Positions 10,121 through 26,053 of a DNA stretch of 40,129 nt are shown here, one piece after another. The notes under the pieces were generated by a model. It was not told where the DNA came from. It was given only the letters and a program-made list of their open reading frames with translations, and made no database searches. Position 1 is the first letter of the stretch; the number at the start of each line of letters is the position of its first letter. The stretch is taken from contig SXHR01000078.1 in assembly GCA_005773625.1 (NCBI GenBank), forward strand, positions 1 through 40,129. Reading direction: 5' to 3'. Position numbers and translations under genes: made by a program. This DNA comes from Planctomycetaceae bacterium (lineage in GTDB: Bacteria > Planctomycetota > Planctomycetia > Pirellulales > UBA1268).

Positions 10121-10906
10121 TCAGGCGGCCCGGGGCAGAACCCGGCAGCGATCGACCGCCTCCAGCGCCCTGGCGGAGACGGGATGCCCCTCGAACAGCC
10201 GCAGGTCGGCCGGGATGCCCACGCCGTACATGCCGGCCCCCTCGGCTCCCACGTTCACGTAGGAGATCCTCCGGTGGTCGGCGATCAGCTGGTTGTAGAC
10301 CGGCGCGACGTAAAACTCGCCGTTCACCCGCAGGTCGTGCTCGATCATCTGTTCGGCGGCCGCCACGAAGTCGCTGCCGTGGCGGAAGTTGTAGATGCCG
10401 ACCGTGGCCTCGTTCGAGATCACCCGCTTCTCCACCACCTCGGTGATCAGCTGATCCGCGGCCGGGCGGACGAACGACCACTTCGGGTCGTCGGCGGTCA
10501 TCGTCATGATCAGGCCGTCGAGCCGATTGTGCTCGAGCGTCGCGAGGTAGTCGTCGATCGGATAATCGACCCATTGATCGCTGTTGGCGATCATCAGGGG
10601 ATCGCTGGTGGCGATCTGCTCCCGCGCGAGCAGCACGGTGCAGGCGGCCCCCTGCGTGACGCCGCTGACGGGCACGATGCAGCAATTCGGGGCGACCTCC
10701 CGGAGGGTCTGCTCCATCGGAAACTGGTCGAGGTGATCCTGCTGGCAGAGAAACACGAAGCGATGCAGCTGCTGCGGCCGGAGGTTGGCGACGACGAGCT
10801 GGATCATCGGCACGCCGTGCACGGGTATCAGCGGCTTGGGGAGGGTGTAGCCCGCCGTCGTGAAGCGGCTGCCTCGCCCCGCCATCGGCACGACAATGTG
10901 GAGCAT
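10121..10906 (-). CDS. Sugar-phosphate nucleotidyltransferase-like protein (GT2_BcE/BcbE-like)
   Basis: IVVPMAGRGSRF...YTLPKPLIPV, TQGAACTVLLA, IANSDQ, VEKRVISNEATVGIYNF, NGEFYVAPVYN; start MLHIVV after AAGGA. Confidence 0.85.
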   Translation of the reverse strand: MLHIVVPMAGRGSRFTTAGYTLPKPLIPVHGVPMIQLVVANLRPQQLHRFVFLCQQDHLDQFPMEQTLREVAPNCCIVPVSGVTQGAACTVLLAREQIATSDPLMIANSDQWVDYPIDDYLATLEHNRLDGLIMTMTADDPKWSFVRPAADQLITEVVEKRVISNEATVGIYNFRHGSDFVAAAEQMIEHDLRVNGEFYVAPVYNQLIADHRRISYVNVGAEGAGMYGVGIPADLRLFEGHPVSARALEAVDRCRVLPRAA

Positions 10907-10976
10907 CGTGAAATCCTTTTCCGCCTCGGAGATCGTTCTCGGCCCGGCCATCCATGACCGGGGTGCCTTCCGCATG

Positions 10977-11297
10977 TCAGTCGAGATATTTGTCGTCTTT
11001 GACGCTGGGCCGCTTCACGACGACCGTCAGCGTCTCTTCCAGGGCCTCGAAGCCGGTCGACTCACCCGGCTCGAGATGCACCACGGTTCCCGCCTCCATG
11101 ATCCCGCCGCACATCCGCACGCGTCCCGTCACCACGACCGTCACCTCCTCGGCGACCTTGTGGTGATGACCGGGCTCACGGGCCCCGGCCGGATAGTGCT
11201 TGACAGCCACCTCGAATTCGCCGGTGCGGATCACGGCGGGCGAAAAATCGCCGACGAACCAGCCGCCGTGCATGTCGGCAAGTCGAAAGGTCTTCAT
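10977..11297 (-). CDS. Small cupin-fold protein
   Basis: GGWFVGDFSP, HHHKVAEEVTVVVTG (cupin motif 1), GTVVHLEPGE, C-terminal VKRPSVKDDKY. Confidence 0.8.
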   Translation of the reverse strand: MKTFRLADMHGGWFVGDFSPAVIRTGEFEVAVKHYPAGAREPGHHHKVAEEVTVVVTGRVRMCGGIMEAGTVVHLEPGESTGFEALEETLTVVVKRPSVKDDKYLD

Positions 11298-11303
11298 GGC
11301 GGG

Positions 11304-11309
11304 AGTCTA
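11304..11309 (-). promoter_or_regulatory. Probable -10 element (TAGACT) 6 nt before the cupin ATG; leaderless-type start
   Basis: Minus strand tagact-cccgcc-ATG with no SD. Confidence 0.45.
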
Positions 11310-11590
11310 GTGCCCTTCGCGCTCTCCGCTCCAGACGGTTCCACGCCTGTTTTGTCGGCGGGACCCGATTCCCGCCTTGCCGAGAGCCCATGCCGCAATC
11401 CTGGGGCGATCTGCGGGAATGGGCAGGCGGGGCAGGCTGGCCTCGGGTGGGGTCGAGGAAGGCGGGCTGCCGCCATGATTCTCCCGTGGACGCCGGGGGC
11501 CCTGATCAAGTACTCCCCCGGGCCGTGTCGGCGGATGTCGCCATTGGAGTCGCCCGGTCCGTGTTTCCGTCGCCGTCCGCCGCCGAAGCC

Positions 11591-12235
11591 GTGATCCTGG
11601 CCCACCGTGGCCTGTGGAGGGAACGGTCCGAGCGAAACACCCCCGTGGCGCTCGAAGCCGCCCTGAACAGGGGTTTTGGCGTGGAGACGGACGTGCGGGA
11701 CTGCCTGGGCGAACTTGTCATCAGCCACGACATGCCGGCCGGCCGCGAACAGCGGTTCGGGGATTTTCTCGACCGCTACCTGGCCCTGCAAAGCACCGCG
11801 CCGCTGGCGATCAACGTCAAGGCCGACGGGCTCGCCGGAGCGATCCGCCAGGCGTTGGAGTCTCGCGGCATCGAGGATTATTTCTGTTTCGACATGTCCG
11901 TTCCGGATGGCCGCTCGTACGCATCCCTCGGCATGCGCTGCTTCGCGCGATTGAGCGAACTCGAACCGCACTCGCCCGTGGCGGAATCGGCCGCGGGCAT
12001 CTGGCTCGACGCCTTCGAGAACACCTGGTTCGATGCGGCCACGATCGACCACTGGCTCGACCGCGGCCGGGACGTGTGCGTGGTGTCGCCCGAACTCCAC
12101 GGCCGGCCCCACGGCCCGCTCTGGCAGATGCTGCGGCGGTGCCGGGCGGCGGAAAAAGCCGGCTCGGGGCCGGGCTGTGGACGGCTGATGGTCTGCACCG
12201 ATTATCCCGAGCTCTTCGCGGGGGTGGCGGCATGA
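11591..12235 (+). CDS. GDPD/PI-PLC-like phosphodiesterase
   Basis: ILAHRG, ERNT, GVETDV, VISHD, AINVK, VVSPELHGR, CTDYP; GTG start at 11591. Confidence 0.75.
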   Translation: MILAHRGLWRERSERNTPVALEAALNRGFGVETDVRDCLGELVISHDMPAGREQRFGDFLDRYLALQSTAPLAINVKADGLAGAIRQALESRGIEDYFCFDMSVPDGRSYASLGMRCFARLSELEPHSPVAESAAGIWLDAFENTWFDAATIDHWLDRGRDVCVVSPELHGRPHGPLWQMLRRCRAAEKAGSGPGCGRLMVCTDYPELFAGVAA

Positions 12236-12897
12236 CGATCAAAGCCGTGATCTTCGACATGGACGGCGTCCTCATCGAGGCCAAGGAGTGGCACTACGAG
12301 GCGCTCAATCAGGCCCTCGGGCTCTTCGGGTTCGGCATCAGCCGGCAGGATCACGAACATCGCTTCGATGGGCTGCCGACGCGGACCAAGCTGCTGACGT
12401 TATCCCAGGAGTGCGGGCTGCCGGTCGCCCTGCACGGCTTCATCGGTCGGATGAAGCAGAAATACACCGCCGAACTCGCCCGCGCGAACCTGCAGCCCAA
12501 TCCGCTCCACACCTACGCGCTGCGGACGCTGCGGGCGGATGGCTATCGCATCGGTGTCGCATCCAACTCGATCCGCGGCACGATCGACCTGATGATGTCG
12601 CTGGCCGGGCTGACGCCCTTCCTCGACTTCATCCTCAGCAACGAGGACGTGAAGCAACCGAAGCCGTCGCCCGAGATCTATCTCAAGGGGATGTCGCTGC
12701 TGGACGTCGCCCCGCACGAGTGCCTGGTGCTCGAGGACAATCCGTTCGGCTGGCAGGCGGCCACCGAGGCCGGCGCCCACCTCCTCAAAATCGGCACCGT
12801 GCACGAGGTCAACTACGGCAACATCCGCCGTGTCGTTCAGGCGGTCGAGTCGCGGGCCAGGGTGGACGACCTCGAGTCGTTCCCGAAGGTGGCGTGA
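12232..12897 (+). CDS. HAD-superfamily phosphatase
   Basis: IFDMDGVL (motif I), ASNS (II), KPSPEIY (III), LEDN (IV); ATGA overlap with the upstream gene. Confidence 0.9.
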   Translation: MTIKAVIFDMDGVLIEAKEWHYEALNQALGLFGFGISRQDHEHRFDGLPTRTKLLTLSQECGLPVALHGFIGRMKQKYTAELARANLQPNPLHTYALRTLRADGYRIGVASNSIRGTIDLMMSLAGLTPFLDFILSNEDVKQPKPSPEIYLKGMSLLDVAPHECLVLEDNPFGWQAATEAGAHLLKIGTVHEVNYGNIRRVVQAVESRARVDDLESFPKVA

Positions 12898-12927: not shown

Positions 12928-14385
12928 TCACGCCGACGCGGACTCAGCAAGCAGCTGCCAGATGGCGGCAACGTCACGTCGCGTCGTGGTGGCCCCGCCG
13001 ATCGCCAGTCTCAGGACAAAGCGGCCGTTGACGCGGGCATGGCTGAGGAAGCCGCGGCCGGAGGCGTTGACGCGGTCGAGGAGCCGCCGCGAGGCGTCGT
13101 CGCCGGCCCGCAGGGCGAAGCAGACGAGCGCGAGGTTCGGTTCGATCACGACCTCGAACCGCCCGTCGGCCGCCACCCAGCCGGCGAACTCGTGGGCCCA
13201 CTCGACGTGCCGGCGGATGTGCGTCCGCAGCGGACCGGCACCGAGCATGCGGAGCGTCATCCAGAGCTTGAGCGCCCGGAAGCGTCGGCCGAGGGGCACC
13301 TGCCATTCGCTGTAGTCGATCACGGCTCCACCGTCGCTCGACTCGTTCCGCAGATACTCGGGCCTCATCGACAGGGCCGACACGAGTGCCGAGCGGTCGG
13401 CGACCCACAGGGCGTGGCAGTCGAAGTTGACGAGCAGCCACTTGTGCGGATTGAAGCCCCAGCTGTCGGCCCGGTCGGCACCCGCCACGACGGTGTCGCG
13501 AAACTCCGGGCAGATCGCCGCGGCGCCGGCCCAGGCGGCATCCACGTGGAGCCAGGCGGAGTGCCGGGCCGCGATCGCGGCGATTGCCGGCACCGGATCG
13601 ACGCCCCCCGAAGCCGTGGTGCCCACGGTGGCGACGACGAAGAAGGGCCGGCGTCCGGCCGCCGCATCCTGATCCATCGCGGCCGAGAGGGCGGCTGCAT
13701 CCATCCGCCCCCCGGCATCGACGGCGATGCTTCGCAGCCATCCGCGGCCGATGCCGGCGATGCCCGCGGCCTTCTCCACGCTCGAATGGGCGTCGATGCT
13801 CGCGTAGGCGACGAGGGGGCGGTCGTCCTGGCGGAGTCCCGAGCGGTTCGTGCCGAGCGCCGTGGCCCGCTCACGCGCGGCGACGAGCGCGCAGAGCACG
13901 CCGCTCGAGGCCGAATCCTGGATCACGCCCCCGCCGGCGGAGCCGCTCGCAAACCGCCCGGGCAGCCCGAGCAGATCGCGGAGCCAATCGAGCACGAGCG
14001 TCTCGAGTTCCGTGCAGGCCGGCGACGTCGCCCAAAGCAGTCCCTGCACGCCGAGTCCGGCCGTGAACAGTTCGCCGAGGATCGACGGGCCGCTCGCACT
14101 CGCCGGAAAGTAGGCGAAGAAGGAGGGATGCTGCCAGTGCGTGAGCCCCGGGACGATCACGCGGTCGAGATCGGCGATGATGTCGGCCAGCGGTTCCGGA
14201 TCTTCCGGCGGCCCCGGCGACAACTCGGATCGCACCCAGCCGGGTGGCACCTGCGACCGCACCGGGTGCGAAGCGAGCGCCTGCCAGTAGTCGGCGATCC
14301 AATCGACCACCAACCGGCCCTCACGGCGGAAGCGCTCCGGGTCGAAAGGGACCGGGAGTGGATCATCGGACCCGGACGGCGGCAT
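12928..14385 (-). CDS. PLP-dependent aromatic-L-amino-acid decarboxylase (group II)
   Basis: PGLTHWQHPSFFAYFP, WATSPACTELE, GGGVIQDSAS, AHSSVEKA, LHVDAAWAG, NPHKW (PLP lysine), WQVPLGRRFRALKLW. Confidence 0.92.
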   Translation of the reverse strand: MPPSGSDDPLPVPFDPERFRREGRLVVDWIADYWQALASHPVRSQVPPGWVRSELSPGPPEDPEPLADIIADLDRVIVPGLTHWQHPSFFAYFPASASGPSILGELFTAGLGVQGLLWATSPACTELETLVLDWLRDLLGLPGRFASGSAGGGVIQDSASSGVLCALVAARERATALGTNRSGLRQDDRPLVAYASIDAHSSVEKAAGIAGIGRGWLRSIAVDAGGRMDAAALSAAMDQDAAAGRRPFFVVATVGTTASGGVDPVPAIAAIAARHSAWLHVDAAWAGAAAICPEFRDTVVAGADRADSWGFNPHKWLLVNFDCHALWVADRSALVSALSMRPEYLRNESSDGGAVIDYSEWQVPLGRRFRALKLWMTLRMLGAGPLRTHIRRHVEWAHEFAGWVAADGRFEVVIEPNLALVCFALRAGDDASRRLLDRVNASGRGFLSHARVNGRFVLRLAIGGATTTRRDVAAIWQLLAESASA

Positions 14386-14386
14386 G

Positions 14387-15643
14387 CTAGCGGTCCCCGC
14401 TCTTGAAGCACCAGATCGTGCCGTCGTCCGACGCGATCACGACGCGGCCGTCGGCCACCGCGGCACCGGCCCCGAAGCCGCCGCCGGCATCGAACTCCCA
14501 AGCCGGCGCGCCCGTAGCCGCGTCGAGGGCGGCGACGTTTCCGGCGGCATCGGCGACGATGGCCACGTCACGGGCCGCGGCGGCGTCCGGCCCGCTGGCC
14601 GACACGACGACGGGTGAGGCCTCGACGCGGCCGCGCATCGGCTGTCGCCACCTCCGGTCGCCATCCGCCGTCGCGAACGCCTCGACCGCCTTGCCCCGGA
14701 AGCCGACGATCGCGAGGTCGCCCGCGATCGCGGCGCTCGAACGGTAGGACTGGCCGGCCGCGGCGGGCTGCTTCCGCCAGGCGACCTCTCCCTTCGCGAA
14801 GTCGATCGCGAAGAAGACGCCCCCTTCGGTGCCGAAGAAGACGCGATCGCCCGCCACGGCGGGCGTCGTGCCGGTGGGCCCGTCGATCGGCACGGCGGCG
14901 GTCTCCCTGCCGGTGGACGCGTCGATGACGTGCAACCGGCCGTCGCAGCCGGCGAGAAACACCCGGTCGCCGGCGGTGGTTCGGGCGACCGTGGGCGAGC
15001 AGCGGATCTGGTCGGCGATCGAAAGCTTCCAGAGGAGCTTGCCATCGACGAGATCCAGGCAGGAGAGCGAGGCATCCTGTGAACCGACGAGGACGCGGAT
15101 GCCGTCAGCAGTCGGCAGGACGGTGGGGCCGCCCGAGATCTCCCCGTCGGTCTCGTACGTCCAGCGGACCGCGCCCGTCGTCGCGGCGAAGCCGCGGACG
15201 ACGCCCATGTCGTCGCCCACCACGACGGTCCGGTCCGGCCCCTCGCCGGCGACCGCCGCGGCCGACGGAAAGCCGGCCTCCGCCGCCTTGAAAGACCAGC
15301 GGTCCGCGCCATTCCCGAGTGACAGCGCATGAAAGGTGCCGTCGAGGTCGCCCACGAAAAGCGTGTCGGCGGCGATCACCGGCACCGCCGCGAATGAGGT
15401 CTTTTCAAACTCGCGGTGCCACGACTCGGCCAGCGGCAGGCGGAGCATCCCGGCTGATCGGCCGGTGCCGGCGAGGCATCCGCGAGCCATGGCCCAGGCG
15501 TCGGCCGGGGCCGCCTCGGCTCGCGGTTCGTCGTCGGCCGCGCACGCGGCTGCCATGCCGCGCATGGCCAGGATGCACGGGATGCCCAGCATGCCCGGGA
15601 TGCCCAGCAACACGACCACGCCCCATGCCCTCAGGCGGCTCAT
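14387..15643 (-). CDS. PQQ-like (BamB-type) beta-propeller repeat protein with signal peptide
   Basis: Repeated blades (ALSLGNGADRWSF, FAATTGAVRWTY, LDLVDGKLLWKL, LDAATGAPAWEF); hydrophobic N-terminus; ATGA overlap with the ADH stop. Confidence 0.85.
   Translation of the reverse strand: MSRLRAWGVVVLLGIPGMLGIPCILAMRGMAAACAADDEPRAEAAPADAWAMARGCLAGTGRSAGMLRLPLAESWHREFEKTSFAAVPVIAADTLFVGDLDGTFHALSLGNGADRWSFKAAEAGFPSAAAVAGEGPDRTVVVGDDMGVVRGFAATTGAVRWTYETDGEISGGPTVLPTADGIRVLVGSQDASLSCLDLVDGKLLWKLSIADQIRCSPTVARTTAGDRVFLAGCDGRLHVIDASTGRETAAVPIDGPTGTTPAVAGDRVFFGTEGGVFFAIDFAKGEVAWRKQPAAAGQSYRSSAAIAGDLAIVGFRGKAVEAFATADGDRRWRQPMRGRVEASPVVVSASGPDAAAARDVAIVADAAGNVAALDAATGAPAWEFDAGGGFGAGAAVADGRVVIASDDGTIWCFKSGDR
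15549..15609 (-). repeat. Degenerate 9-bp-period minisatellite in the signal peptide coding region
   Basis: ccgcgcatg gccaggatg cacgggatg cccagcatg cccgggatg cccagca, encoding LGIPGMLGIPCILAMRGM. Confidence 0.5.
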
Positions 15644-16800
15644 CGTGCCGCCTCGTAGAGCATCGCCAGATCGGCGGCGGTCACCGGCCGTGGATTGAAC
15701 GATCCCGTCCATTGCGACGCCGCGAGGGGGGCGAGCAGACCGATGTCGGGCGCCGGGATCCCGCACTCGCGGAGCGAGGTCAGCAGGTGCGATGCCCGGA
15801 GGAGGTCTGCCAGCCAGCCAGCCAGTCGCTCCCCCGCGGTCGCCGCCCCGGTCTCGACTCCGATCTCGCCGAGCAGTTCGCCGTAGCCGGCACCGCAGGC
15901 CCGGCCGTTGAAGCGGACCACGTGCGGCAGCATCACGCCGACGGCCTGTCCGTGGATCACGCCGTGCACCGCCGTGAGCGGATTGGCCAGCGCGTGGGCC
16001 GCGCCGAGCATGGAGTTTTCGATCGCAAAACCGGCCAGCGCCGCGCCGAGCTGCACGGCCGAACGGGCCGCGATGCTGCCGCCATCGACGAGCACCTCCG
16101 GAAGATTGCGGGCCAACAGCCGCCATGCCTCCCGGGAAAACATCCGTGAGACCGGCGTGGCCGCCGTGCTGACGTGGCTCTCCACGGCGTGCGACACCGC
16201 ATCGATACCGGTGACCGCGGCGAGCGAACGCGGCTGCGTGAGCGTGAGATTCACGTCGAGGATCGCGAGGCGGAACGCGGCCCGGGGATCGCCGCAGGCC
16301 ATCTTCGCACCGGAGTCGGAGTCGGTGATGAGTGCGAACGACTGCGTCTCGCTTCCGGTGCCCGCCGTGGTCGGCACGGCGATCGACGGCAGGAGCGGGC
16401 CGGTGGCCGAGGCACGGCCCCGGTAGTCCTGCATCCGACCGCCGCAGGAGATGAGGAAGTTGATCCCCTTCGCGCAGTCCATCGAACTGCCGCCGCCGAG
16501 TCCCACGAGCAGATCGGGGCGGAAGTCGCGGGCGAAGGCCGTGCCCGCCTCGACTTCGGCCGATGTGGGGTTCTCCGTGAATGCCGAGAAGAGGCCGGTC
16601 ACGAGCCCCGCGGCCTCGAGCGCCGCGATGCCCGCGGCGGTGTGCCCTGCCGCCACGATCCCCGCATCACTCGTCACCAGCACCCGGCTGGCGGCGAATT
16701 CGCGGGCCAGCGTGCCGAGGTGCGTCAGCGACCCGGGCCCCACGATGAGTCGCGTCGGGGCGCGAAAGCCGAACGAGGGTGGATCAATCGTCTGCGTCAC
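15640..16800 (-). CDS. Iron-containing alcohol dehydrogenase
   Basis: GLGGGSSMDCAKG, VPTTAGTGSE, GIDAVSHAVES, GAAHALANPL...HG; GTG start at 16800 (the ORF-track extension is spurious). Confidence 0.92.
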   Translation of the reverse strand: MTQTIDPPSFGFRAPTRLIVGPGSLTHLGTLAREFAASRVLVTSDAGIVAAGHTAAGIAALEAAGLVTGLFSAFTENPTSAEVEAGTAFARDFRPDLLVGLGGGSSMDCAKGINFLISCGGRMQDYRGRASATGPLLPSIAVPTTAGTGSETQSFALITDSDSGAKMACGDPRAAFRLAILDVNLTLTQPRSLAAVTGIDAVSHAVESHVSTAATPVSRMFSREAWRLLARNLPEVLVDGGSIAARSAVQLGAALAGFAIENSMLGAAHALANPLTAVHGVIHGQAVGVMLPHVVRFNGRACGAGYGELLGEIGVETGAATAGERLAGWLADLLRASHLLTSLRECGIPAPDIGLLAPLAASQWTGSFNPRPVTAADLAMLYEAAR

Positions 16801-16826
16801 GGGGCATTCCGGCGAGGTGGCGGAGG

Positions 16827-18254
16827 TCACGCCGACGTGGCTGCCGGCACCTGCAGCGCCCGCGACCTGTAGAGAAAGTCGATGATGTTGCCCTCGTGCG
16901 GCTGCAGCCAGTCGAGCTTCGTCGTCGGGATCGGGCCGAGGTTGAGCCGGTCGATGTGGGTGCACGCCATGAGCCGGTCCCGGAATGCCCTGTCGTGCGT
17001 GATCGCCGAGCAGACGAGCGTCGGGCCGATCGCATCGAGCATCCGCTCCTGCGGGCACTCGACCACGCTCACGAACGGAAACATGTATTCTCCCTTCGCG
17101 ATCGCGGGCTCCGGGCTGGCACAGTGCGCGACCGTGGGCCGGAGCCATCCGCAGCGTTCGCCCTCGACGAGCCGCGGGCCGTAGGCAGCCGTCGCGTGCG
17201 TCACGCCGCGCTCCTTCAGGCCGCCTTCGATCTGCCCCCAGATCGCCTTGGCGGCACCGGGAATCGTGAACGCGGCGAGCTTGGCTTCCGGATCGTCGGG
17301 CTGCTTCACGTCGATCGGACCGAGTCGCTCGGCGACGGCGTCGGCGATCGCCTTCGTGTGCCGGCTGGCGTAGATCGCCGAGGCGTTGATGCAGCCGCGG
17401 CCGCTGTTGAGAGCGACGCTCTCGCACATCATGTCGAGGTGTTTCTCCCAGTCGTCCACGGAATCGTCGCCGAGAAGGATCTTGGAGAAGCCGGGGCCGT
17501 GCACCTGCACGCCGGGGTTGCCGCGGTACTGGTCCACCGTCTTGGCGCTGCCGAAGATCATCGAGCGGCGACAGCCGGCGAGGATGCCGGCGCCCACGTC
17601 GGTCGTGCCCGGATAGAGGCTGATCGCCTCGGCGGGGATGCCCGCCTCCACCATGGCGGCCGCCATGCGGTAGGGAGTCCAGGGCTCCTGGCTGCCCGGC
17701 TTCATCACGAGGCCGACGCCAAGGGCGATCACCGGCAGCCAGAGTGTGTGCACCCCGGGCGAGTTGGAGGGAAGCACGAGGCCGAGCACCGGCGATTGGG
17801 CCTGGTAGCTCACCGTCACGCCACGGTGCTCCACGCCATGCCCCTGCCACAGGATCTTCGTGTCGAGCCCGCGGGAGAGGGCGTCGAGAATCCGGTCCAT
17901 GTTCGAGAGCACGAACATGTTCTTCTGCATGTTGGCCCGACAGAGGCTCTCCGGCAGGCCGGTCGTGGCCGATTGGCACTTCACGAAGTCCTCGGGCGAC
18001 TGCTTCGTGTCTCCGACGACGACCGTGCCGTTCGCGTAGAGGTTGCCCGCGGTCTGCAGCCGCTCCACGATCTCCTCGGGGTCGATCGCGAGCAGGGCCG
18101 CCCGGGCCTGGGACGCCTTCTGCAGGTCGCGGCCCACGACCGCCCCGCCGATCTGGCTCACCTCGACGACGGGATCGCCGGTGAGGAAGTGGACGAGTGT
18201 CTCGCGTTCCAGGGATTCATAGGGTTTGCCGTAGCGCCAGGCGGGAAGATGCAT
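16827..18254 (-). CDS. Atypical aldehyde dehydrogenase-superfamily protein (EhpG/LuxC-like acyl reductase candidate)
   Basis: VLPSNSPG, MKPGSQEP, IFGS, HGPGFSK in place of ELGGK, NSGRGCINAS (catalytic Cys), EYMFPFVSV. Confidence 0.85.
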   Translation of the reverse strand: MHLPAWRYGKPYESLERETLVHFLTGDPVVEVSQIGGAVVGRDLQKASQARAALLAIDPEEIVERLQTAGNLYANGTVVVGDTKQSPEDFVKCQSATTGLPESLCRANMQKNMFVLSNMDRILDALSRGLDTKILWQGHGVEHRGVTVSYQAQSPVLGLVLPSNSPGVHTLWLPVIALGVGLVMKPGSQEPWTPYRMAAAMVEAGIPAEAISLYPGTTDVGAGILAGCRRSMIFGSAKTVDQYRGNPGVQVHGPGFSKILLGDDSVDDWEKHLDMMCESVALNSGRGCINASAIYASRHTKAIADAVAERLGPIDVKQPDDPEAKLAAFTIPGAAKAIWGQIEGGLKERGVTHATAAYGPRLVEGERCGWLRPTVAHCASPEPAIAKGEYMFPFVSVVECPQERMLDAIGPTLVCSAITHDRAFRDRLMACTHIDRLNLGPIPTTKLDWLQPHEGNIIDFLYRSRALQVPAATSA

Positions 18255-18261
18255 CGGAAGT

Positions 18262-18294
18262 CACTCGCGGGAAGGGAACAGAGGCTTCAGGATA
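18262..18294 (-). promoter_or_regulatory. Putative -10 (TATCCT) and leader motif of the ALDH-ADH-PQQ-decarboxylase operon
   Basis: Minus strand tatcctgaagcct-N7-cttcccgcgagtg-N7-ATG. Confidence 0.45.
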
Positions 18295-18359
18295 CCACCT
18301 GCGGGCCGGCATCCCCTCGCCCCCACATCCTGAGCCGGATCGCTCCGACAGGAAGCGGT

Positions 18360-19346
18360 TCAGTAGGCGTAGGCAAACCCGCTGGCGCCGCCCGACGGGC
18401 TCCCGATGCCGTCGAGCGACCAGTTGTAGCTCGTGTAGACGGCGAGCCGCTGCGTCGGATTCCACTGCACTCCCACGCCGCTGACCAGATCGGAGGGAAA
18501 GTAGGGGATGCCCGCGGCGTTGTAGAAGCCCTGATAGAAGATCGCCAGCGTCGGGGTGAGCTGCTTCTGGACGGCCCACTGCGCGCCCAGATCGGGCAGG
18601 CTCAGGTCGTCAGGCAGACTCTGGACGCCGTTCCCGTAGCAGCCGACATTCCATTCGATCACCCAGTCGCCCGGCAGGCGGTGATCGACCAGCAGGCTCA
18701 TCCCCGGCTCGGTGCCGATCTGGAACGGTCGTGAGGCGATGCCCGTGAGCAGGAACGTCTCCACCCCCACGATCGGCCAGTAAAGCAGATCCTTGTCGCC
18801 CCAGAGATGGATCTTGAGATCGAACACGAGCGGCGCGAAACCATCGACCGCGGGATCGGTGGCCGTCGCTCCGACGACCGTGGGGCCCTGGCTGATGATG
18901 CGAAACTCCACGTTGTCGGTGAGCCCGGTTCGCATCATGAACGGCCACGACCACGTCCCCGGAGTGCCGTCGTCGCCCGCCAGGGAATAGGTGCCCGGTA
19001 CCGTCTCGATGTAGGAACGGCCCTTCGGAAGCGTCAGCGGGCTGTTGGGATAGTTCGCGGTGTCGGGCCCGGGACTGGAGATGTCGGCCGGAACGGGTGC
19101 GCCGGGGTCTCCCTCCGGAATCAGGCGGTGCACGAGCCGGTAGACGAAGTTGTCGTCACTCGGCGTCGCCGCAGGCTCGGGCTCGTCAAACTCCGTCACC
19201 TTGAACATCGCCACCGGCACGATCTCCGGCGGCTCCGCGGCGCCACCCGCCATTCCCGCCGCGAGCCATCCCAGCACGACCGCCGCCGCGAGTGACGCCG
19301 GCCGAAAGCCTCGGCCCACCGGAAATCGCAGTCGCTGGCACACCAT
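18360..19346 (-). CDS. Putative outer-membrane beta-barrel transporter (MetA-pathway of phenol degradation/COG4313-like)
   Basis: Signal peptide; PDTANYPNSPLTLPKGRSYIET, MRTGLTDNVEFRI, amphipathic strands, aromatic C-terminus (GFAYAY). Confidence 0.6.
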   Translation of the reverse strand: MVCQRLRFPVGRGFRPASLAAAVVLGWLAAGMAGGAAEPPEIVPVAMFKVTEFDEPEPAATPSDDNFVYRLVHRLIPEGDPGAPVPADISSPGPDTANYPNSPLTLPKGRSYIETVPGTYSLAGDDGTPGTWSWPFMMRTGLTDNVEFRIISQGPTVVGATATDPAVDGFAPLVFDLKIHLWGDKDLLYWPIVGVETFLLTGIASRPFQIGTEPGMSLLVDHRLPGDWVIEWNVGCYGNGVQSLPDDLSLPDLGAQWAVQKQLTPTLAIFYQGFYNAAGIPYFPSDLVSGVGVQWNPTQRLAVYTSYNWSLDGIGSPSGGASGFAYAY

Positions 19347-19559
19347 CGGGCAAACCCCGGAAAACGCGGAGCACGTCTGCCGTCATTTTCGGCATTTCAC
19401 CCGCCGGCGTGCACCGTTCGATCGCTCCGCACACGCCGGCGTCGCCCAGAGTCCGCCATCTGCCCAGCGTGGACGCGGGGCGTTGGCGGTCGCCAGAAAA
19501 TCCCGGCAACGCGGGGGCCCGGGGGCGGGCTGGCAATCTGGCGAGGCTCAGGACTCGCG

Positions 19560-20702
19560 TCAGTACACACCCACGGTCGTGGTCGCCGCCAACTCACGGA
19601 ATGGGCGAACGCCGCTGATGCCGTCCCATGGATATTTCACGTAGGGCAATTCCCGCTCGCCCTCGTCCCGCTCCAGGAACCCCGGGATGAAGGTCTCCTT
19701 CGTGAGCGTGGTGAGACGCACGCGGCCGGTGCCGCCGTAGGCGACGAGTTCGTCAGGGGCGTCGAAATTCACCACCTCGATCACCGCGCGGGGCTGCGGA
19801 GCGTAGTAGGCGATCGTGTAGCCGTCGGCGGGCACGACGGGGCGGCTCGCCGCCAGACCCATCAGGGTGTTGCCGTAGGTGGGCGTCATGAAGGCGCCGT
19901 CGAGGAGTTCCTCGACCGCGAACCTTGTCCACTGCGGCGTGAACTCGGTGCCCCCCGAGAAGATGCCGGTGATCCCGGCCTTCCCGATCGTCGTGCCCTT
20001 CTTTTCGAGCGCCAGGGCGAGGGCCTCGAGCAGCTTCGGCGTCGTGAACATGCAGCGGATCTCGTGGCCTGCCTCGAGAATCGTGATCGCCTGATCGATG
20101 CAATGCTGCTTGTAGGCCTCGAGATGCTCCATCCAGCCCTTCTGGATGAGCTTGATCACCCAGCGGGGATCGAGATCGACGCAGAAGCAGATCCCGCCGC
20201 GGAACTGCGCGAGGTGCTCGATCGAAAGCCGCAGCCGCCGCGGACCCGACGGGCCGAGCATCAGCCAGTTGGCTCCCTTCGGGAAATACTCCTCGGGCAA
20301 CGTCGCCGAGAACTGTTCGTAGTCGGTGCGGAAGTCGCGGGAGTTGTAGCGCGACTTGGGCACGCCCGTCGTCCCGCCGGTCTCGAACACAAAAACCGGC
20401 TGATCGGCCAGACCCTTCGGCACCCAACGCCGCACGGGGCCACCGCGGAGCCACTCGTCCTCGAACGGCGGAAATTTCTTGAGATCGTCGAAGCACCGCA
20501 CCTCGGTGAGGGGATCGAAGGAAAGCCTCGTCGCCTCCTCGAGCCAGAACGGACAGCCGGTCGAGGGATGGAAGTGCCAGGCCATCATCTCGATGGTGTG
20601 CGCGTCGAGCTCGGCCCGGGCCTTCTTTACTCCCTCGTCGCCCGCCACCTCGAAGACCGGCGGCTTTTGGGAACACGATCCCGACGGCGAGGCGCTGGCC
20701 AT
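19560..20702 (-). CDS. EhpF-like atypical ANL-superfamily adenylating enzyme
   Basis: WHFHPSTGCPFWL, FDPLTEV, FETGGTTGVPK (P-loop), DLDPRWV, TTP, GGTEF, YG, ERD and C-terminal GVY match my recollection of Pantoea agglomerans EhpF; only 380 aa. Confidence 0.82.
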   Translation of the reverse strand: MASASPSGSCSQKPPVFEVAGDEGVKKARAELDAHTIEMMAWHFHPSTGCPFWLEEATRLSFDPLTEVRCFDDLKKFPPFEDEWLRGGPVRRWVPKGLADQPVFVFETGGTTGVPKSRYNSRDFRTDYEQFSATLPEEYFPKGANWLMLGPSGPRRLRLSIEHLAQFRGGICFCVDLDPRWVIKLIQKGWMEHLEAYKQHCIDQAITILEAGHEIRCMFTTPKLLEALALALEKKGTTIGKAGITGIFSGGTEFTPQWTRFAVEELLDGAFMTPTYGNTLMGLAASRPVVPADGYTIAYYAPQPRAVIEVVNFDAPDELVAYGGTGRVRLTTLTKETFIPGFLERDEGERELPYVKYPWDGISGVRPFRELAATTTVGVY

Positions 20703-20767: not shown

Positions 20768-21238
20768 TCAGGTGTCCGCCGGGGTCTCGGACTGGGGCAG
20801 GGGGGCGCCGAGCTGCGCGAAGAGTTGCAGCACGCCATTGAAGTGGGCGAGCCGCGGGCCGTAGCGGTCGATGAACTCACCGAGGGCGTATTCGCTGTCG
20901 GAGAAGTCGTCGGCGTTGTCGGCCGCTTCCTGCGCGATGCCGGAGAGAAACTCCGCGTGCACCTTCGCGAGCGACTCAGCGGCCTGTCGGCAGGCCTTCG
21001 TGAGCTGCGGGTTGGCTTCCTTCCAGGCCTTGAGTTCCGCCGTCCGCTGCCGCTGCTGGGACGAGACCTGGTTGACCAGCTCCATGAGCAGTTCGCACGA
21101 ACGGTGCTGCCCGGCGACGAGGTCGCGGAGCAGTTGGTTGGTCTCGGCGAGGTCGCCCGTGGGGGGCGGCCGACTCCCGGATGAGACCGTGCCGGCCGAG
21201 ATGTCGAACTGCGAAAAGATCGGAGGACCGTCGCTCAT
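20768..21238 (-). CDS. Hypothetical helical protein
   Basis: MSDGPPIFSQFDIS...QQRQRTAELKAWKEANPQL...EFIDRYGPRLAHFNGVLQLFAQL; coding-like codon usage. Confidence 0.7.
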   Translation of the reverse strand: MSDGPPIFSQFDISAGTVSSGSRPPPTGDLAETNQLLRDLVAGQHRSCELLMELVNQVSSQQRQRTAELKAWKEANPQLTKACRQAAESLAKVHAEFLSGIAQEAADNADDFSDSEYALGEFIDRYGPRLAHFNGVLQLFAQLGAPLPQSETPADT

Positions 21239-21492
21239 GGGCTCGCCCATCCTGGGGTGGTGGCCGTGATTCACCGACTCGACCCACCGGCAATCGTAAG
21301 CAGGGCGGACCGGTTTTTCCACGAACCGGGGCGGATATTCAGCCGCACTGGCAGGGTTTACCCAGCTTCGCGGCCTTTTCGTCGATCCCTGCGAGGGCTC
21401 AAGTGCCCGACCAAGACGCCCGATGCAAGGGGGTGCCGGGGAGCGGAGCCAGGGAAGGCGTCCGCAGCGGTGGTGTGGAGCGGCGAAGCAGC

Positions 21493-22005
21493 ATGCAGCA
21501 GCAGGCGGACGCCCGTGCCGACGGGCCATCGTTCGGGTTTCTCACGGCGGTCGATTCGCCGGTGCACGGTCTCTTCGGCGGCTATCTCGTCGTCGATGCC
21601 CTCGGCCGGCCCCTGGAGTTTCACTGCACGGCGCCCCAGAAGGTGACCCGCGCCCAGCAGATTCTCTACGGCCCGACGCTCCACGGTCATCTCCATGGCC
21701 AGCAGATCGGCGGTGCCCTGCTCGCGGAGAGCAGGGTCACGGCCGCCGTCGTGCTCACCGACCACGACGCGATGCTCCATGTCCGTCCGCACACCAAACT
21801 CCCGGTCGCCCTGGTGCAGGCACTCGATGGCGAGCCTCTTGCGGCCGGATTCACGTTGGGGGCCGCCCGCGTCAGCCCGCATCCGCAGGATCTGGCCGAC
21901 GAGCAGTCGATCCGTGAGCGGCTGGCGGAACTGGCCTTGGCGGTCGACCTCCGCGAACCGTTCGATCGGATTCGCGCCGCGATCGACGAGGCACAGCGGC
22001 ACTAG
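21493..22005 (+). CDS. Hypothetical protein
   Basis: GFLTAV...GLFGGYLVVDALGRPLEFHCTAP...AQQILYGPTL...DLREPFDRIRAAIDEA; directly upstream of the SNF2 gene. Confidence 0.7.
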   Translation: MQQQADARADGPSFGFLTAVDSPVHGLFGGYLVVDALGRPLEFHCTAPQKVTRAQQILYGPTLHGHLHGQQIGGALLAESRVTAAVVLTDHDAMLHVRPHTKLPVALVQALDGEPLAAGFTLGAARVSPHPQDLADEQSIRERLAELALAVDLREPFDRIRAAIDEAQRH

Positions 22006-22014
22006 CGGGACGGG

Positions 22015-23886
22015 ATGGGTGAAGTGAAGGACGGCAGGGGTGGCGCGGCCACCGGCGGGGAATCCGGGCATGGCAGCGCGGAGGCCGCGGCCGGGCACGA
22101 TCGCTTCAGATCAACGGCATGGGTTCGAGGACAGCGGATGAATGATCGCGCCGGCCGCATTCGGTCGCTCACCCCGGACGAGTTGGCGCTGGCCGCCTGC
22201 TCGATCCGGTCGCCGTTCGATCTGCGGCTGCCACGCCCCCCGGCGCTCCGCTTGCCGGTCATGGGGCCGTCGCCGGCGGTGGTGCGGTTCGACCTGTTGG
22301 CCGGCCGGCCGGCGGTGACGAGCTACCGCTTCGCACCGGCTGCCGACGCGCAGCCGCCACGCGTCGCCGCGGCCTCACGCGATCCGAAGACCGGATCGCC
22401 GCCGTCCCCGCCGACCGTCCGCACCCGGATCACCCCCCCCCGCGACGTCGTCAAGCTCTCGGAGCGGTTCTTCTACCTGCTCCAGCCCGACCTTCAGACG
22501 ATGCTGGACGGCGCGGCGCTCGAGTTTCCCCGGCAGCCTTTCCCCTTCCAGCTCGATGGCATGGCGTTTCTCATGCCCCGGCACGGTGCCGTGCTGGCCG
22601 ACGAGATGGGGCTCGGCAAGTCGATGCAGGCCATCTCCTCGATCAGGCTGCTCGTGCGGTCGGGGGAAGCCCGACGCGTGCTCGTCGTCTGTCCGAAGGG
22701 GCTCGTCTCGAACTGGGCCCGTGAACTTGCCGACTGGGCTCCCGAACTCGTCGTGGCCGTGATCGAAGGCGATCAACAACGGCGGCGCTGGCAGTGGAGC
22801 CTCGCCGAAGTGCCGGTGAAGGTGGCCAACTACGAGGTGGTCGTGCGGGATCGCGAGCTCGTGGCGGAACTCGGCCTCTCCTTCGATCTCGTCGTGCTCG
22901 ACGAGGCGCAGCGGATCAAGAACCGCTCCAGTCAGACGAGCCAGGCCATTCGCTCGCTCGATCGCCGCCGGTCATGGGCCCTGACCGGCACTCCGATCGA
23001 GAATAGCGCCGAGGATCTCGTCGGCATCTTCGAGTTCGTGTCTCCGGGGACGCTCGCCGACCGGATGCCTCCCAGGGAGATGGGCGCGGCTGCCGCCGAC
23101 CATATCCTGCGGCGGACGAAGGAGAAGGTGCTCAAGGACATGCCCCCCCGGCTCAATCGAGACGAGCGGATCGAACTCACCGCCGAGCAGCGGGAAACCT
23201 ACCGCCGGGCCGAGGAGGAGGGCGTCTTGCGGCTCGCCGAGATGGGCCGTGAGGCGACGATCCAGCACGTCTTCGAACTCGTCCTCCGCCTCAAGCAGAT
23301 CTGCAACTTCGACACGGCCACGGGCGAGAGCGCGAAACTCGAGTGCCTCCAGGCCGAGCTCGAGGAGGTGCAGGCCAGCGGCCGCAAGGCCCTCGTCTTC
23401 AGCCAATGGGTCGAGACGCTCGGCCGTCTCGACAAGGGCCTCGCGAGGTTCGGGGCGCTGCAGTATCACGGCGGGATGTCGACCGTCGCCCGCGACGAGG
23501 CCATCCGGCGGTTTCGGCAGGAAAAAAAGCATTCGGTGCTGCTCCTCTCGTATGGAGCGGGCGCCGTGGGGCTCAACCTCCAGTTCTCGCAGTATGTCTT
23601 CCTCTTCGACCGCTGGTGGAATCCCGCGGTCGAGGATCAGGCGATCAACCGCGCCCATCGGATCGGCGCGGCGGGGGCCGTGACCGTCACCCGCTTCCTT
23701 TCCGCCGACACGATCGAGGAGCGGATCGACGAGGTGCTCCGCCGCAAGCGGGATCTCTCCGACACGATCCTCTCGCAGGCCGAGCCGCCCGCATCGAGCG
23801 GCCTCACCGCCGAGGAACTCTTCGCCCTCTTCAAGCTTCCCGCGCCCCTGCGGTCGCCGGCCGGTCGCCCCGCCGCCGCCGCCTGA
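22015..23886 (+). CDS. SNF2-family helicase/ATPase (start may be downstream, e.g. 22138)
   Basis: LADEMGLGKS, LDEAQRIKN, LTGTPIEN, ILRRTK, LKQICN, VFSQW, GLNL, WWNPAVEDQAINRAHRIG. Confidence 0.93.
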   Translation: MGEVKDGRGGAATGGESGHGSAEAAAGHDRFRSTAWVRGQRMNDRAGRIRSLTPDELALAACSIRSPFDLRLPRPPALRLPVMGPSPAVVRFDLLAGRPAVTSYRFAPAADAQPPRVAAASRDPKTGSPPSPPTVRTRITPPRDVVKLSERFFYLLQPDLQTMLDGAALEFPRQPFPFQLDGMAFLMPRHGAVLADEMGLGKSMQAISSIRLLVRSGEARRVLVVCPKGLVSNWARELADWAPELVVAVIEGDQQRRRWQWSLAEVPVKVANYEVVVRDRELVAELGLSFDLVVLDEAQRIKNRSSQTSQAIRSLDRRRSWALTGTPIENSAEDLVGIFEFVSPGTLADRMPPREMGAAAADHILRRTKEKVLKDMPPRLNRDERIELTAEQRETYRRAEEEGVLRLAEMGREATIQHVFELVLRLKQICNFDTATGESAKLECLQAELEEVQASGRKALVFSQWVETLGRLDKGLARFGALQYHGGMSTVARDEAIRRFRQEKKHSVLLLSYGAGAVGLNLQFSQYVFLFDRWWNPAVEDQAINRAHRIGAAGAVTVTRFLSADTIEERIDEVLRRKRDLSDTILSQAEPPASSGLTAEELFALFKLPAPLRSPAGRPAAAA

Positions 23887-24049
23887 CCGGCCACGGCGGG
23901 GGAAAACCGGGGTAATCACCGGCAAAACTCGGCTCCCTCCGCAGGGCCCGATGTGTCAGACTCCCGCCCCCATTTCCCAGTCGGAGAGTTTTGGGCGGCG
24001 GTCGCATCGCGGCCGCGGTGTGCGCATCCAGCGGTGGAGGTCGAAGGCC

Positions 24050-26053
24050 ATGTCAGGTGTCATTCGTTCGTATCTGCGGACACTCGAGAAGTCGGTCCGG
24101 GGTCGGCTGCCCACGGGGGTCCGCAGCGCCTTGCGTCCGTACCTCGCGGCGCCGCGGCGACGCTGGCCCGTCCCGGCGGCGCACGTTCGCGCCCAGGACA
24201 GCGGCGGGCAGCCGCCGGCAACGCCCCGGAACGCGTCCCGGAAGGATCCGCTTCCGGGCATGGTGTCGGTGATCATCCCGATCTACGACCGAACCCACGA
24301 ACTCCGCGAGGCGATCGAGTCGGTCCTGGCGCAGACCTACGCCAACTTCGAGCTGCTCCTGGTGACCGACGGATCTCCGGCAGAGACGCGGGCGGTGGTG
24401 GAGTCGTATCGCAGCCATCCGCAGGTCCGAATCTTCAACTACCTCGACAACACGGGCACCGCGGTTCGCGGCCGCAACCGTGGCATCAAGGAAGCCCGCG
24501 GCGAATACGTCGCCTTCCTCGACAGCGACGACATCGCGGCCCGCGACCGGCTCGCCGTTTCGGTGCGCGAGATGAACGCGGGCGGATACGACGTCGTCTA
24601 CGGTGCATGGACCGCGAAGCTCGACGGCACGCGGCACTTCGACGACCTGCGGGACGGCCAGAAGGTGACGAGCCCGCCCTGCGATCTCGAGATGCTTCGC
24701 CGCGTCTGCGTGCCGTGTCAGAGCACCGTGATGGTGCGGCGGGCGGCCCTGCTCGATGTCGGCGGGCTCAAGCCCGGCATGCGCTACCGCGAGGACCATG
24801 AACTCTGGATGCGGCTGGCCCACTTCGGCTACCGGTTCGGGGCCATCCGCGAGAACCTGGTGCACCTGCGGCTGCATCGCGGCAACAACGAGATGAACTT
24901 CAAGGACGACGACGCCTTCTGGGAGCGCCGGGCCAAGGCGGAGCACCGGAGCAAGGCGACGCTCACGCCCACGATCGCCTATCTCATTCCGGGCACGGGC
25001 ATCTCCGGCGGCATCGCCGTGATCCTCGAACACGCCAATCGACTCCTCGAGGCCGGCTGTGACGTGATGCTCATCAGCCAGGACGACAAGGACTCGATCC
25101 CCTGGTGGTCGGGCAACAAGGTGCCGGTGATTCCCTTCAGCACCGCCTCGCGGTATCTCTTCGACTCCCTCGACACCGTCGTGGCCACCGGCTGGACGAC
25201 CGTCTCGATGCTCGATCATTTTGCGACGCGCCGGAAACTCTACTTCGTGCAGTCGGATGAACGGCGGTTCGACGACTGCCCGGAGTTCAAGAAGCAGGTG
25301 CATGGCACCTACCTCCGCCACGACATCGAGTATGTGACGATGGCCGGCTGGATCTGCCGGTGGCTGAAGCAGGAGTTCGGCCACGACTGCGGCTACATCG
25401 GCAACGGCATCTCGCCGGAACGCTTCGCGAACACCAGGCCGCTCGAACCGCGACGGGGCCGGGTGCGGATCCTCATGGAGGGGCCGACCGTGATCCCGTT
25501 CAAGGGCATGGACGACGCCGCCGAGGCGTTGCGGGACTTCGACGACTGCGAGGTGTGGATCGTGTCGGCTGCCGGCGGCCCCAAGCCCGGCTGGCGGTGC
25601 GACCGGTTCTTCGAGGCCGTTCCGCATGCCGAGATGGCGGCGATCTACGCCAGCTGCGACATCCTCCTGAAGATGTCGCGGGTGGAGAGCTTCTCCTATC
25701 CTCCGCTCGAGATGATGGCGACCGGGGGCGGTGTCGTTGTCCGAGAAGTCTCGGGCCTCGATGAATACGCCATCGACGGCGAGAACTGCCTGATCGTCGC
25801 GGATGTCGCCGGCGCCCGCCGGGCCGTGCGGAGTCTCGTTGACGACGTGGCCTTGCGGGCGCGACTCGGCGCCGCGGGGCTGGAGACGGCCGAACAGATG
25901 ACCTGGGATCGCTCCCTGCCGGCGCTGCTGGAGATCGTCGCCGGAGTTCCGCGGCTGGTGACGGCCACGGAGCGTGCCGATGCCCATGTCTTCCCGATCG
26001 CCCTCGGCAGGGCGGCGACGCCGCAGCGGGGCAGACGGGCTTCAGTGGCCTGA
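24050..26053 (+). CDS. Bifunctional glycosyltransferase: GT2 fused to a WsaF-like GT4 domain
   Basis: VSVIIPIYDR...VTDGS...FLDSDD (GT2); SGGIAVILEHANRL, ATGWTT, YFVQSDE, ESFSYPPLEMMATG (GT4); GGAGG before ATG 24050. Confidence 0.88.
   Translation: MSGVIRSYLRTLEKSVRGRLPTGVRSALRPYLAAPRRRWPVPAAHVRAQDSGGQPPATPRNASRKDPLPGMVSVIIPIYDRTHELREAIESVLAQTYANFELLLVTDGSPAETRAVVESYRSHPQVRIFNYLDNTGTAVRGRNRGIKEARGEYVAFLDSDDIAARDRLAVSVREMNAGGYDVVYGAWTAKLDGTRHFDDLRDGQKVTSPPCDLEMLRRVCVPCQSTVMVRRAALLDVGGLKPGMRYREDHELWMRLAHFGYRFGAIRENLVHLRLHRGNNEMNFKDDDAFWERRAKAEHRSKATLTPTIAYLIPGTGISGGIAVILEHANRLLEAGCDVMLISQDDKDSIPWWSGNKVPVIPFSTASRYLFDSLDTVVATGWTTVSMLDHFATRRKLYFVQSDERRFDDCPEFKKQVHGTYLRHDIEYVTMAGWICRWLKQEFGHDCGYIGNGISPERFANTRPLEPRRGRVRILMEGPTVIPFKGMDDAAEALRDFDDCEVWIVSAAGGPKPGWRCDRFFEAVPHAEMAAIYASCDILLKMSRVESFSYPPLEMMATGGGVVVREVSGLDEYAIDGENCLIVADVAGARRAVRSLVDDVALRARLGAAGLETAEQMTWDRSLPALLEIVAGVPRLVTATERADAHVFPIALGRAATPQRGRRASVA

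Follow-up and report, generated by a model that had tools for sequence, protein, structure and literature searches.

To our knowledge, carboxylic acid reductases made of two proteins have been described from just two pathways, which yield antibiotics or pigments. EhpF and EhpG belong to the D-alanylgriseoluteic acid cluster of Pantoea agglomerans. In the grixazone pathway of Streptomyces griseus, GriC and GriD convert 3-amino-4-hydroxybenzoate into the aldehyde via acyl-AMP, according to the available part of PMC10179220, which cites Suzuki 2007. A pattern in which the catalytic Cys is kept alone is described for reductive members of the aldehyde dehydrogenase (ALDH) superfamily such as LuxC in the available part of PMC12041015, where the LuxC-LuxE structure 7XC6 is also named. 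Here we analysed a contig of 40,129 nucleotides (SXHR01000078.1, our contig C56; the whole stretch is called the window) from a planctomycete metagenome-assembled genome (MAG; 2.72 Mb, 71% complete, ~69% G+C), whose closest public relatives are freshwater Pirellulales/Planctomycetia MAGs. The window encodes an EhpF-like adenylating protein, an EhpG-like protein of ALDH fold, an iron-containing alcohol dehydrogenase (Fe-ADH) and a beta-propeller. In our judgement there is about an even chance that the EhpF-like/ALDH-like pair and the Fe-ADH reduce an aromatic acid in two stages, first to an aldehyde and from there to an alcohol, as one arm of a scattered planctomycete gene set. The locus was judged to be a real, conserved and uncharacterised variant of a known enzyme type. 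The searchable literature held no description of this reductase arm in planctomycetes (supplements, which may hold gene lists of strain 10988, lay outside the search).

The 380-aa protein encoded at 19560..20702 had been recognised as EhpF-like along its full length in an earlier, sequence-only reading of the window, and comparison with solved structures bore this out. Its residues 37-369 aligned end to end with residues 25-354 of the 366-aa EhpF (PDB 3l2k/3hgu; E 1.4e-38), and the next PDB match, to 4-chlorobenzoate CoA ligase, was to the P-loop alone (E 0.013). An E. coli plasmid (NZ_CP076707) carries a complete phenazine cluster of ehp type, and the 380-aa protein shared 34% identity with the EhpF encoded there (E 1e-52). 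Streptomyces proteins annotated as “arylcarboxylate reductase” were 31-33% identical to the 380-aa protein. The protein has the P-loop FETGGTTGVPK and an invariant C-terminal GVY. In ten planctomycete orthologues the sequences FETGGTTGxPK and TYGNT, which we take to be ANL core motifs, were invariant or nearly so and aligned with the corresponding motifs of EhpF. The protein consists of the ANL N-terminal domain only and stops where EhpF stops; that EhpF itself lacks a C-terminal domain is taken from the alignment lengths and from the title of Bera et al. 2010 (PMC2879354, as cited in PMC3175449). Because the ANL C-terminal domain is missing, the EhpF-like protein should be unable to make a CoA thioester. 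An ordinary phenylacetate-CoA ligase (PaaK) was also considered and rejected, there being no NCBIfam match to one at E<=0.01 and no AMP-binding_C_2 C-terminal domain; among the ANL families, EhpF was far ahead of all others.

The ALDH-like protein aligned colinearly from end to end with the EhpG of the same plasmid cluster (24% identity over 462 aa, E 7e-32), as expected of the EhpG-like protein for which it had been taken; generic ALDHs gave partial matches (best E 1e-12). In ten of ten orthologues the catalytic Cys288 and Asn164 were invariant and the general-base Glu was absent, and on alignment to 7bzv the sequence HGPGFSK was found to replace ELGGK.

The EhpF-like and ALDH-like proteins were modelled as a complex from a ten-row alignment for each protein. 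Its score was 0.68 and that of the best of three controls 0.02; the mark used for such scores is reached by 58 of 80 solved complexes and by 2 of 110 mismatched pairs. The runs shared at least 93% of their contacts, the pLDDT of the partner was at least 90, and the predicted interface involved an invariant, family-specific N-terminal segment of the ALDH-like protein. As a prediction, the model supports binding of the two proteins to each other.

The genes concerned are arranged in the window as follows.

12928..14385, minus strand: aromatic-L-amino-acid decarboxylase-type enzyme dependent on pyridoxal phosphate (group II), 485 aa (PF00282, E 6e-109)
14387..15643, minus strand: exported beta-propeller of BamB/PQQ_2 type, 418 aa (PF13360, E 6e-42; hydrophobic N-terminal segment)
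15640..16800, minus strand: Fe-ADH, 386 aa from GTG 16800 (PF00465, E 3e-43; PF25137, E 4e-35)
16827..18254, minus strand: putative EhpG-like reductase subunit of divergent ALDH fold, 475 aa (PF00171, E 2e-19, 69.9 bits)
18360..19346, minus strand: predicted 12-stranded outer-membrane beta-barrel resembling COG4313/PF13557, 328 aa (from a fold model and homologues; no Pfam or NCBIfam match)
19560..20702, minus strand: putative EhpF-like adenylating enzyme, 380 aa (PDB match to EhpF; Pfam AMP-binding below threshold only)
20768..21529, minus strand: conserved protein without a Pfam family, adjoining the EhpF-like gene upstream on the same strand

The six genes from the decarboxylase to the EhpF-like gene are co-oriented, as had been read from the sequence. 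The overlap of the propeller ATG with the ADH stop codon (ATGA) and the 1-nt gap between the propeller and decarboxylase genes were confirmed too. A 26-nt gap had also been claimed between the ALDH-like and ADH genes; it exists if the ADH starts at GTG 16800 and is lost if the alternative in-frame GTG 16830 is used. The latter codon overlaps the stop of the ALDH-like gene (GTGA), and a start there, if true, would mean translational coupling of the two genes. Contigs from three studies spanned the ALDH-like gene, the 328-aa barrel open reading frame (ORF) and the EhpF-like gene unbroken, and the arrangement is therefore real and not an artefact of assembly. A scan of the window for promoters and terminators gave no promoter-like site and nine terminator-like sites, most of them intragenic.

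Conservation was followed in a sample of 401 Planctomycetota genomes, with E<=1e-10 as the threshold for an EhpF-like match. Such a match was found in 108 genomes and a close orthologue (best E<=1e-100, 48-75% identity) in 79; in one family all 20 genomes had the close orthologue. The order EhpF-like, ALDH-like, Fe-ADH, propeller was kept in 52 of the 80 closest public loci. Twenty-six of the other 28 end at most 943 nt past the last matched gene, and two stop ~2-2.7 kb after the EhpF-like gene. The ADH followed the ALDH-like gene in 56 of the 80 loci (the 52 with all four genes and 4 that end after the ADH). Other families contributed 16 close-clade loci, of which 13 had an adjacent ALDH-like gene, 10 an adjacent ADH gene and 8 an adjacent propeller gene; all four genes stood together in 7. 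The conserved core is four genes, encoding the EhpF-like protein, the ALDH-like protein, the ADH and the propeller. The synteny check suggested in the sequence-only reading thus came out in favour of a conserved gene group, both in the close loci and in other Planctomycetota families, and the orphan, self-contained six-gene cluster of that reading gives way to a four-gene core that is an arm of a larger set.

The propeller had been called a PQQ propeller. A beta-propeller of the PQQ_2/BamB family it is; a PQQ dehydrogenase it is not, its size and family being BamB-like. PF01011 covers residues 356-417 only, TIGR03075 scored 63.8 bits against a cut-off of 480, and BamB models matched below their own cut-offs. 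A PQQ-dependent dehydrogenase, with a propeller of ~600 aa, was rejected for this 418-aa protein, whose best family is PQQ_2/BamB.

In distant Planctomycetota families (loci L040-L045 and L050) the core lies inside a co-oriented operon of ~20 kb. This extended operon was defined by clustering the ORFs of 20 loci and by Pfam searches on the conserved neighbours, and comprised, in this order, the following.

Two large propellers
DUF3311 protein and sodium:solute symporter (preceding the core genes)
EhpF-like protein, ALDH-like protein, Fe-ADH and propeller
HemN-like radical S-adenosylmethionine (SAM) enzyme
197-aa protein family (UbiC-like fold, predicted)
Flavin adenine dinucleotide (FAD) enzyme of the Trp_halogenase family
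Glycosyltransferase of family GT4
4HBT thioesterase
174-aa protein without a known family
PaaK-like ligase with a C-terminal domain
ABC ATPase and ~1150-aa permease of FtsX/MacB type

Three propellers were present in the operon of locus L045. The PaaK-like ligase matched PaaK models and kept its C-terminal domain. In the window genome, counterparts were found on other contigs for the radical SAM enzyme (49% identity), the halogenase (51%), the PaaK-like ligase (44%), the GT4 (39%) and the ABC ATPase (54%, with an adjacent MacB-like permease at 32%), and two large propellers stood side by side on one contig. Judged by sequence, these genes are likely to be orthologues of most members of the extended operon.

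The radical SAM gene, searched with the protein of the window genome at E<=1e-60, occurred in 79 of the 401 genomes, and these were identical to the 79 with a close EhpF-like orthologue, with zero mismatches. The agreement held in families in which the genes are patchy (2 of 5 genomes in f5, 2 of 12 in f7, 4 of 8 in f14 and 7 of 23 in f15). Searched likewise with the protein of the window genome, the halogenase occurred in 90 genomes, with all 79 included; among the 11 extra genomes G360 alone matched strongly (E 8.8e-105), the other ten giving weaker matches (E >= 3e-72). In complete genomes the EhpF-like and radical SAM genes were often megabases apart (2.19 vs 3.00 Mb; 0.06 vs 4.44 Mb). The four-gene core is one arm of a conserved set of ~15 gene families, which is physically scattered in the lineage of the window.

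Some variants of these genes were seen along the way. Second EhpF-like copies, about 60% identical, were present in several genomes. At one locus (L034, G351:C1:3716500-3736499) the second copy was followed directly by Fe-ADH and propeller genes with no ALDH-like gene, and was flanked by two further propellers and downstream operon genes. A distant clade of EhpF-like paralogues (29-38% identity) occurred in 29 of the 401 genomes, and four loci carrying it (L046-L049) had no ALDH, ADH or propeller neighbour. In the window genome, the 174-aa family of the extended operon was found as two tandem repeats in a 729-aa ORF (L139, G000:C101, 4491-6680) that had no Pfam or NCBIfam match. On contig C6 of the same genome (L133, G000:C6, 3990-7864) the radical SAM gene was followed by a gene for a 653-aa DUF116-polyprenyl synthase fusion and then by that of the 197-aa UbiC-like family, a hint that the pathway in the lineage of the window also involves a polyprenyl chain.

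The partner genes bear on the substrate. The best models for the radical SAM enzyme were ChuW/HutW, HemN and HemW, all matched below their cut-offs; class C radical SAM enzymes include C-methyltransferases for aromatic rings and quinones. The FAD enzyme carries the motifs GGGPAG and WFWYIP, and WxWxIP is presumably a flavin-halogenase signature; its best PDB relatives were all flavin halogenases (8zop, E 1e-63; CndH, CmlS and Bmp2). A profile of the 197-aa family matched the DUF98 structure 2nwi (E 1.3e-4). With an AlphaFold2 model of this family (pLDDT 87.5), Foldseek retrieved 2nwi (E 4.6e-8, TM 0.75) and the E. coli chorismate lyase 1fw9 (E 1.9e-6). According to the available text of a preprint (bioRxiv 10.1101/723874), 3,5-dibromo-p-anisic acid is produced by a planctomycete isolate, and the adjacent chorismate-lyase-like and flavin halogenase genes baaA/baaB are proposed as its source, via 4-hydroxybenzoate. 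The UbiC-like and flavin halogenase genes of the extended operon are likewise adjacent, and their equivalence to baaA/baaB is a lead drawn from gene descriptions. With a UbiC-like lyase, a halogenase and a radical SAM enzyme as partners, the most likely substrate is therefore 4-hydroxybenzoate made from chorismate, or a derivative that carries halogen or methyl groups. The GT4, the MacB-type system and the propellers suggest that the product is glycosylated and handled in the envelope.

The sequence-only reading had proposed that a carboxylic acid reductase split over two proteins acts on a probably aromatic acid and that the Fe-ADH could come next; with the homology to EhpF/EhpG and the predicted binding of the two proteins, this is still the best reading of the locus. 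What the data show is homology, gene order, co-occurrence and predicted binding; the chemistry, the substrate and the fate of the product are what we infer. The EhpF-like protein would adenylate an aromatic carboxylic acid, and the acyl group would pass from it to the catalytic Cys of the bound, Glu-less ALDH-like partner. With NAD(P)H as reductant, the partner would turn the thioester into the aldehyde, which the Fe-ADH would reduce to a benzylic alcohol. The pathway would end in a hydroxybenzyl alcohol or aldehyde that has been tailored, probably by glycosylation, and that the cell handles in its envelope. We also put forward, as a bolder and rather doubtful proposal, that the core is the reductive arm of a ~15-family set, fixed in a large share of the phylum, that builds a halogenated, C-methylated, possibly prenyl-linked hydroxybenzyl alcohol glycoside, which would be installed in the envelope by the MacB-type extractor and three BamB-like propellers. 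The product would then be a conserved envelope constituent and not an optional secondary metabolite. On the same proposal, brominated anisic acid would be a shunt product or an intermediate of the pathway.

Several points weigh against the aromatic acid reductase pathway. Substrate and reaction direction of the enzymes of this clade are deduced from sequence. The probable co-transcription of the decarboxylase is left unexplained by the pathway. A LuxC-LuxE complex has been solved (7XC6), and the complex score may have passed partly by likeness to it. The orthology of the scattered genes is by one-way tblastn at 32-54% identity, and no counterpart of the sodium:solute symporter or of the 4HBT thioesterase was found in the 71%-complete window genome. 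Kin genomes are non-independent, so that the exact co-occurrence overstates the statistical support, and for this reason nominal co-occurrence P values were given no weight. As to the substrate, the match of the 197-aa family to the DUF98 profile is weak, the chorismate-lyase fold is shared by GntR effector domains (the next Foldseek matches), and the link to baaA/baaB is drawn from the description of these genes in the preprint.

The local neighbourhood lends itself to another account, which we consider improbable: a self-contained pathway in which an arylethylamine from the decarboxylase either condenses with what the reductase makes or is acylated by it, and an outer-membrane channel passes the product or a precursor. 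The 1-nt gap after the propeller stop favours it, and among the 41 close loci that reach far enough the decarboxylase lies downstream of the propeller in 18 (within 600 nt in 15). The enzyme is, by its sequence, of the true aromatic-amino-acid-decarboxylase type: its best solved relative was plant tyrosine decarboxylase 6eei, matched over residues 12-484 (E 1e-136), and the catalytic-loop Tyr, which separates decarboxylases from aldehyde synthases, was aligned (“vidysewq” in the query vs “vvdykdwq” in 6eei). Against this account, the decarboxylase was absent from 20 of 20 more distant loci, and its phyletic profile differs from that of the system: it was found in 59 of the 401 genomes, 23 among the 79 with the system and 36 elsewhere, and in none of the 22 genomes (20 and 2) of the two nearest families. 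The decarboxylase was rejected as an integral part of the system on this profile, and the earlier assignment of the gene to the pathway did not survive. In the lineage of the window it is probably co-transcribed with the propeller gene, and the arylethylamine and the aldehyde may be used together there, as a lineage-specific trait.

The barrel fared similarly. Its family, COG4313/PF13557, presumably serves the passage of hydrophobic aromatic compounds, which would suit a local pathway. The 328-aa ORF had no direct Pfam match, even at E<=1. Freshwater planctomycete data yielded 118 homologues of it, PF13557 being present in 26, and a protein-atlas look-up gave a score of 0.98 to PF13557 clusters. 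Its AlphaFold2 model (mean pLDDT 76) was an all-beta barrel from about residue 110, and Foldseek matched it best to FapF and to 4rl8, an outer-membrane channel of COG4313 (E about 7e-7; TM 0.5-0.64 for the two). The outer-membrane channel of the sequence-only reading is therefore supported indirectly, by homologues and fold, and not by a direct family match. As a member of the cluster it was given up: no counterpart was found at E<=1e-3 in any of the 80 related loci, whether between the EhpF-like and ALDH-like genes or within reach. The spot between these two genes varies in relatives from 3 nt to 3.1 kb, and the unrelated inserts that it carries encode an AAA_14/DUF4143 ATPase or a Fic/DOC protein or are ORFs that belong to no known family (L078, 1438-2568; L087, 9896-10999; L085, 11098-14202). 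The barrel gene is read as an insertion at a variable spot in this species only. The decarboxylase and the barrel are local additions outside the conserved system.

Two other functions were weighed for the core itself. An ANL enzyme with a Cys-only ALDH-fold reductase is also the logic of LuxE/LuxC (available part of PMC12041015), and the MacB-type ABC system and the propellers of the extended operon point to the envelope; the core might accordingly be a fatty acid reductase supplying fatty aldehydes or alcohols for envelope lipids (ether lipids, waxes). This is improbable too. Neither protein had a Pfam match to LuxE or LuxC at E<=0.01, and membership of the LuxCE group was rejected on that ground. 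The EhpF-like protein lacks, near its C-terminus, a Cys of the type that LuxE uses in acyl transfer. The nearest characterised relatives, EhpF/EhpG and GriC/GriD, use aryl acids, and the co-occurring UbiC-like lyase, flavin halogenase, PaaK-like ligase and 4HBT thioesterase are of aromatic-tailoring types. Slightly less probable again is a catabolic module, in which a PaaK-like ANL enzyme is accompanied by an ALDH and an ADH that oxidise an environmental aromatic alcohol or aldehyde. Public pipelines do name the ANL protein a “PaaK-like adenylate-forming protein”, the extended operon has a sodium:solute symporter ahead of these genes, and Fe-ADH reactions are reversible. Yet the ANL protein had no match to PaaK or to any other NCBIfam model at E<=0.01 and lacks the C-terminal domain needed for a CoA thioester, the ALDH-like protein is without the general-base Glu for oxidative thioester hydrolysis, and the same system has a true PaaK-like ligase, with its C-terminal domain, as a separate protein.

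Phenazine tailoring was rejected. The absence of a phenazine core from the window, noted earlier, extended to the window genome (71% complete), in which PhzA/B (PF03284) and PhzF (PF02567) gave no match. In five 99%-complete relatives that carry the cluster, PhzA/B was found in none (control genomes were also blank, so that the sensitivity of this search is unproven), and PhzF-family genes were found in two.

Upstream of the EhpF-like gene, the protein encoded at 20768..21529 is conserved over ~160 aa, and its true start is probably internal. A homologue adjoins the EhpF-like gene in close loci and in locus L032, and 78 of the 80 close loci contained a counterpart of this gene or of the divergent one next to it. 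Beyond it lie a divergent 171-aa ORF (21490-22005) and an SNF2 helicase gene (22015-23886), and all three are syntenic in nearly all of the 80 loci. The two small upstream proteins matched no Pfam family. On the other side, genes for an NTP-transferase, a 281-aa ORF without a family and a HAD hydrolase (10121-12897) converge on the decarboxylase; further upstream, 23951-26053 encodes a 700-aa fusion glycosyltransferase of GT2 and GT4-like parts. Synteny of these two flanks with the cluster is not kept in relatives.

New in this analysis are the exact co-occurrence in 401 genomes, the scattered partner genes in the window genome, the exclusion of the decarboxylase and the barrel, and the link to a brominated metabolite. 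A two-protein reductase type is strongly conserved in about a fifth of the sampled planctomycete genomes. As far as we know, no halogenated aromatic compound other than the brominated anisic acid has been described from the phylum. With 4-hydroxybenzoate and its halogenated forms as candidate substrates, what looked like an orphan cluster becomes a pathway hypothesis that can be put to the test. Operon-based mining overlooks the system in Pirellulales-like genomes, where its genes lie apart. Being small, soluble and made of two proteins, an aryl acid reductase of this type might also serve as a biocatalyst.

Compared with known systems, the planctomycete pair shares with the multidomain Car/Npt reductases the conversion of an acid with ATP and NADPH into an aldehyde, as given in the available part of PMC12041015 and as predicted here; unlike them, it has no carrier-protein and SDR-type (short-chain dehydrogenase/reductase) domains and consists of two proteins, with a reductase of ALDH fold. 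It resembles LuxE/LuxC (7XC6) in having an ANL subunit and a Cys-only ALDH-fold reductase and, as proposed here, in acyl transfer to the Cys and reduction by NADPH (same source and part); it differs in lacking both the Pfam match and the acyl-carrying Cys at the C-terminus, and in that its nearest relatives use aryl acids. In Planctomycetales strain 10988 the adjacent baaA/baaB genes are, by description, like the UbiC-like and flavin halogenase pair that travels with the reductase arm; the available text of the preprint (10.1101/723874) deals with these two genes and an unlinked methyltransferase only, and the word “aldehyde” does not occur in it. GriC/GriD, compared by the description in the available part of PMC10179220, would be alike in the two-protein, ATP-dependent reduction of a hydroxybenzoate-type acid; they belong to a secondary-metabolite cluster of one genus, whereas the planctomycete clade was found in 79 of 401 sampled genomes. 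The closest likeness in detail is to EhpF/EhpG (structures 3hgu, 3hgv and 3l2k). Both systems have a single-domain ANL protein of ~360-380 aa and, after its gene, that of an ALDH-fold partner alignable over its full length, and both partners keep the Cys, have GPGxxK in place of ELGGK and end in a common C-terminal PH(E/D) motif. Identity between the two systems is only 24-35%, the planctomycete clade itself being highly conserved (about 50-75% across families), and the planctomycete system lacks phenazine core genes. The companions of EhpF/EhpG are phz and non-ribosomal peptide synthetase genes, whereas those of the planctomycete pair are the Fe-ADH, the propellers, the halogenase, the radical SAM enzyme, the GT4 and the MacB-type system.

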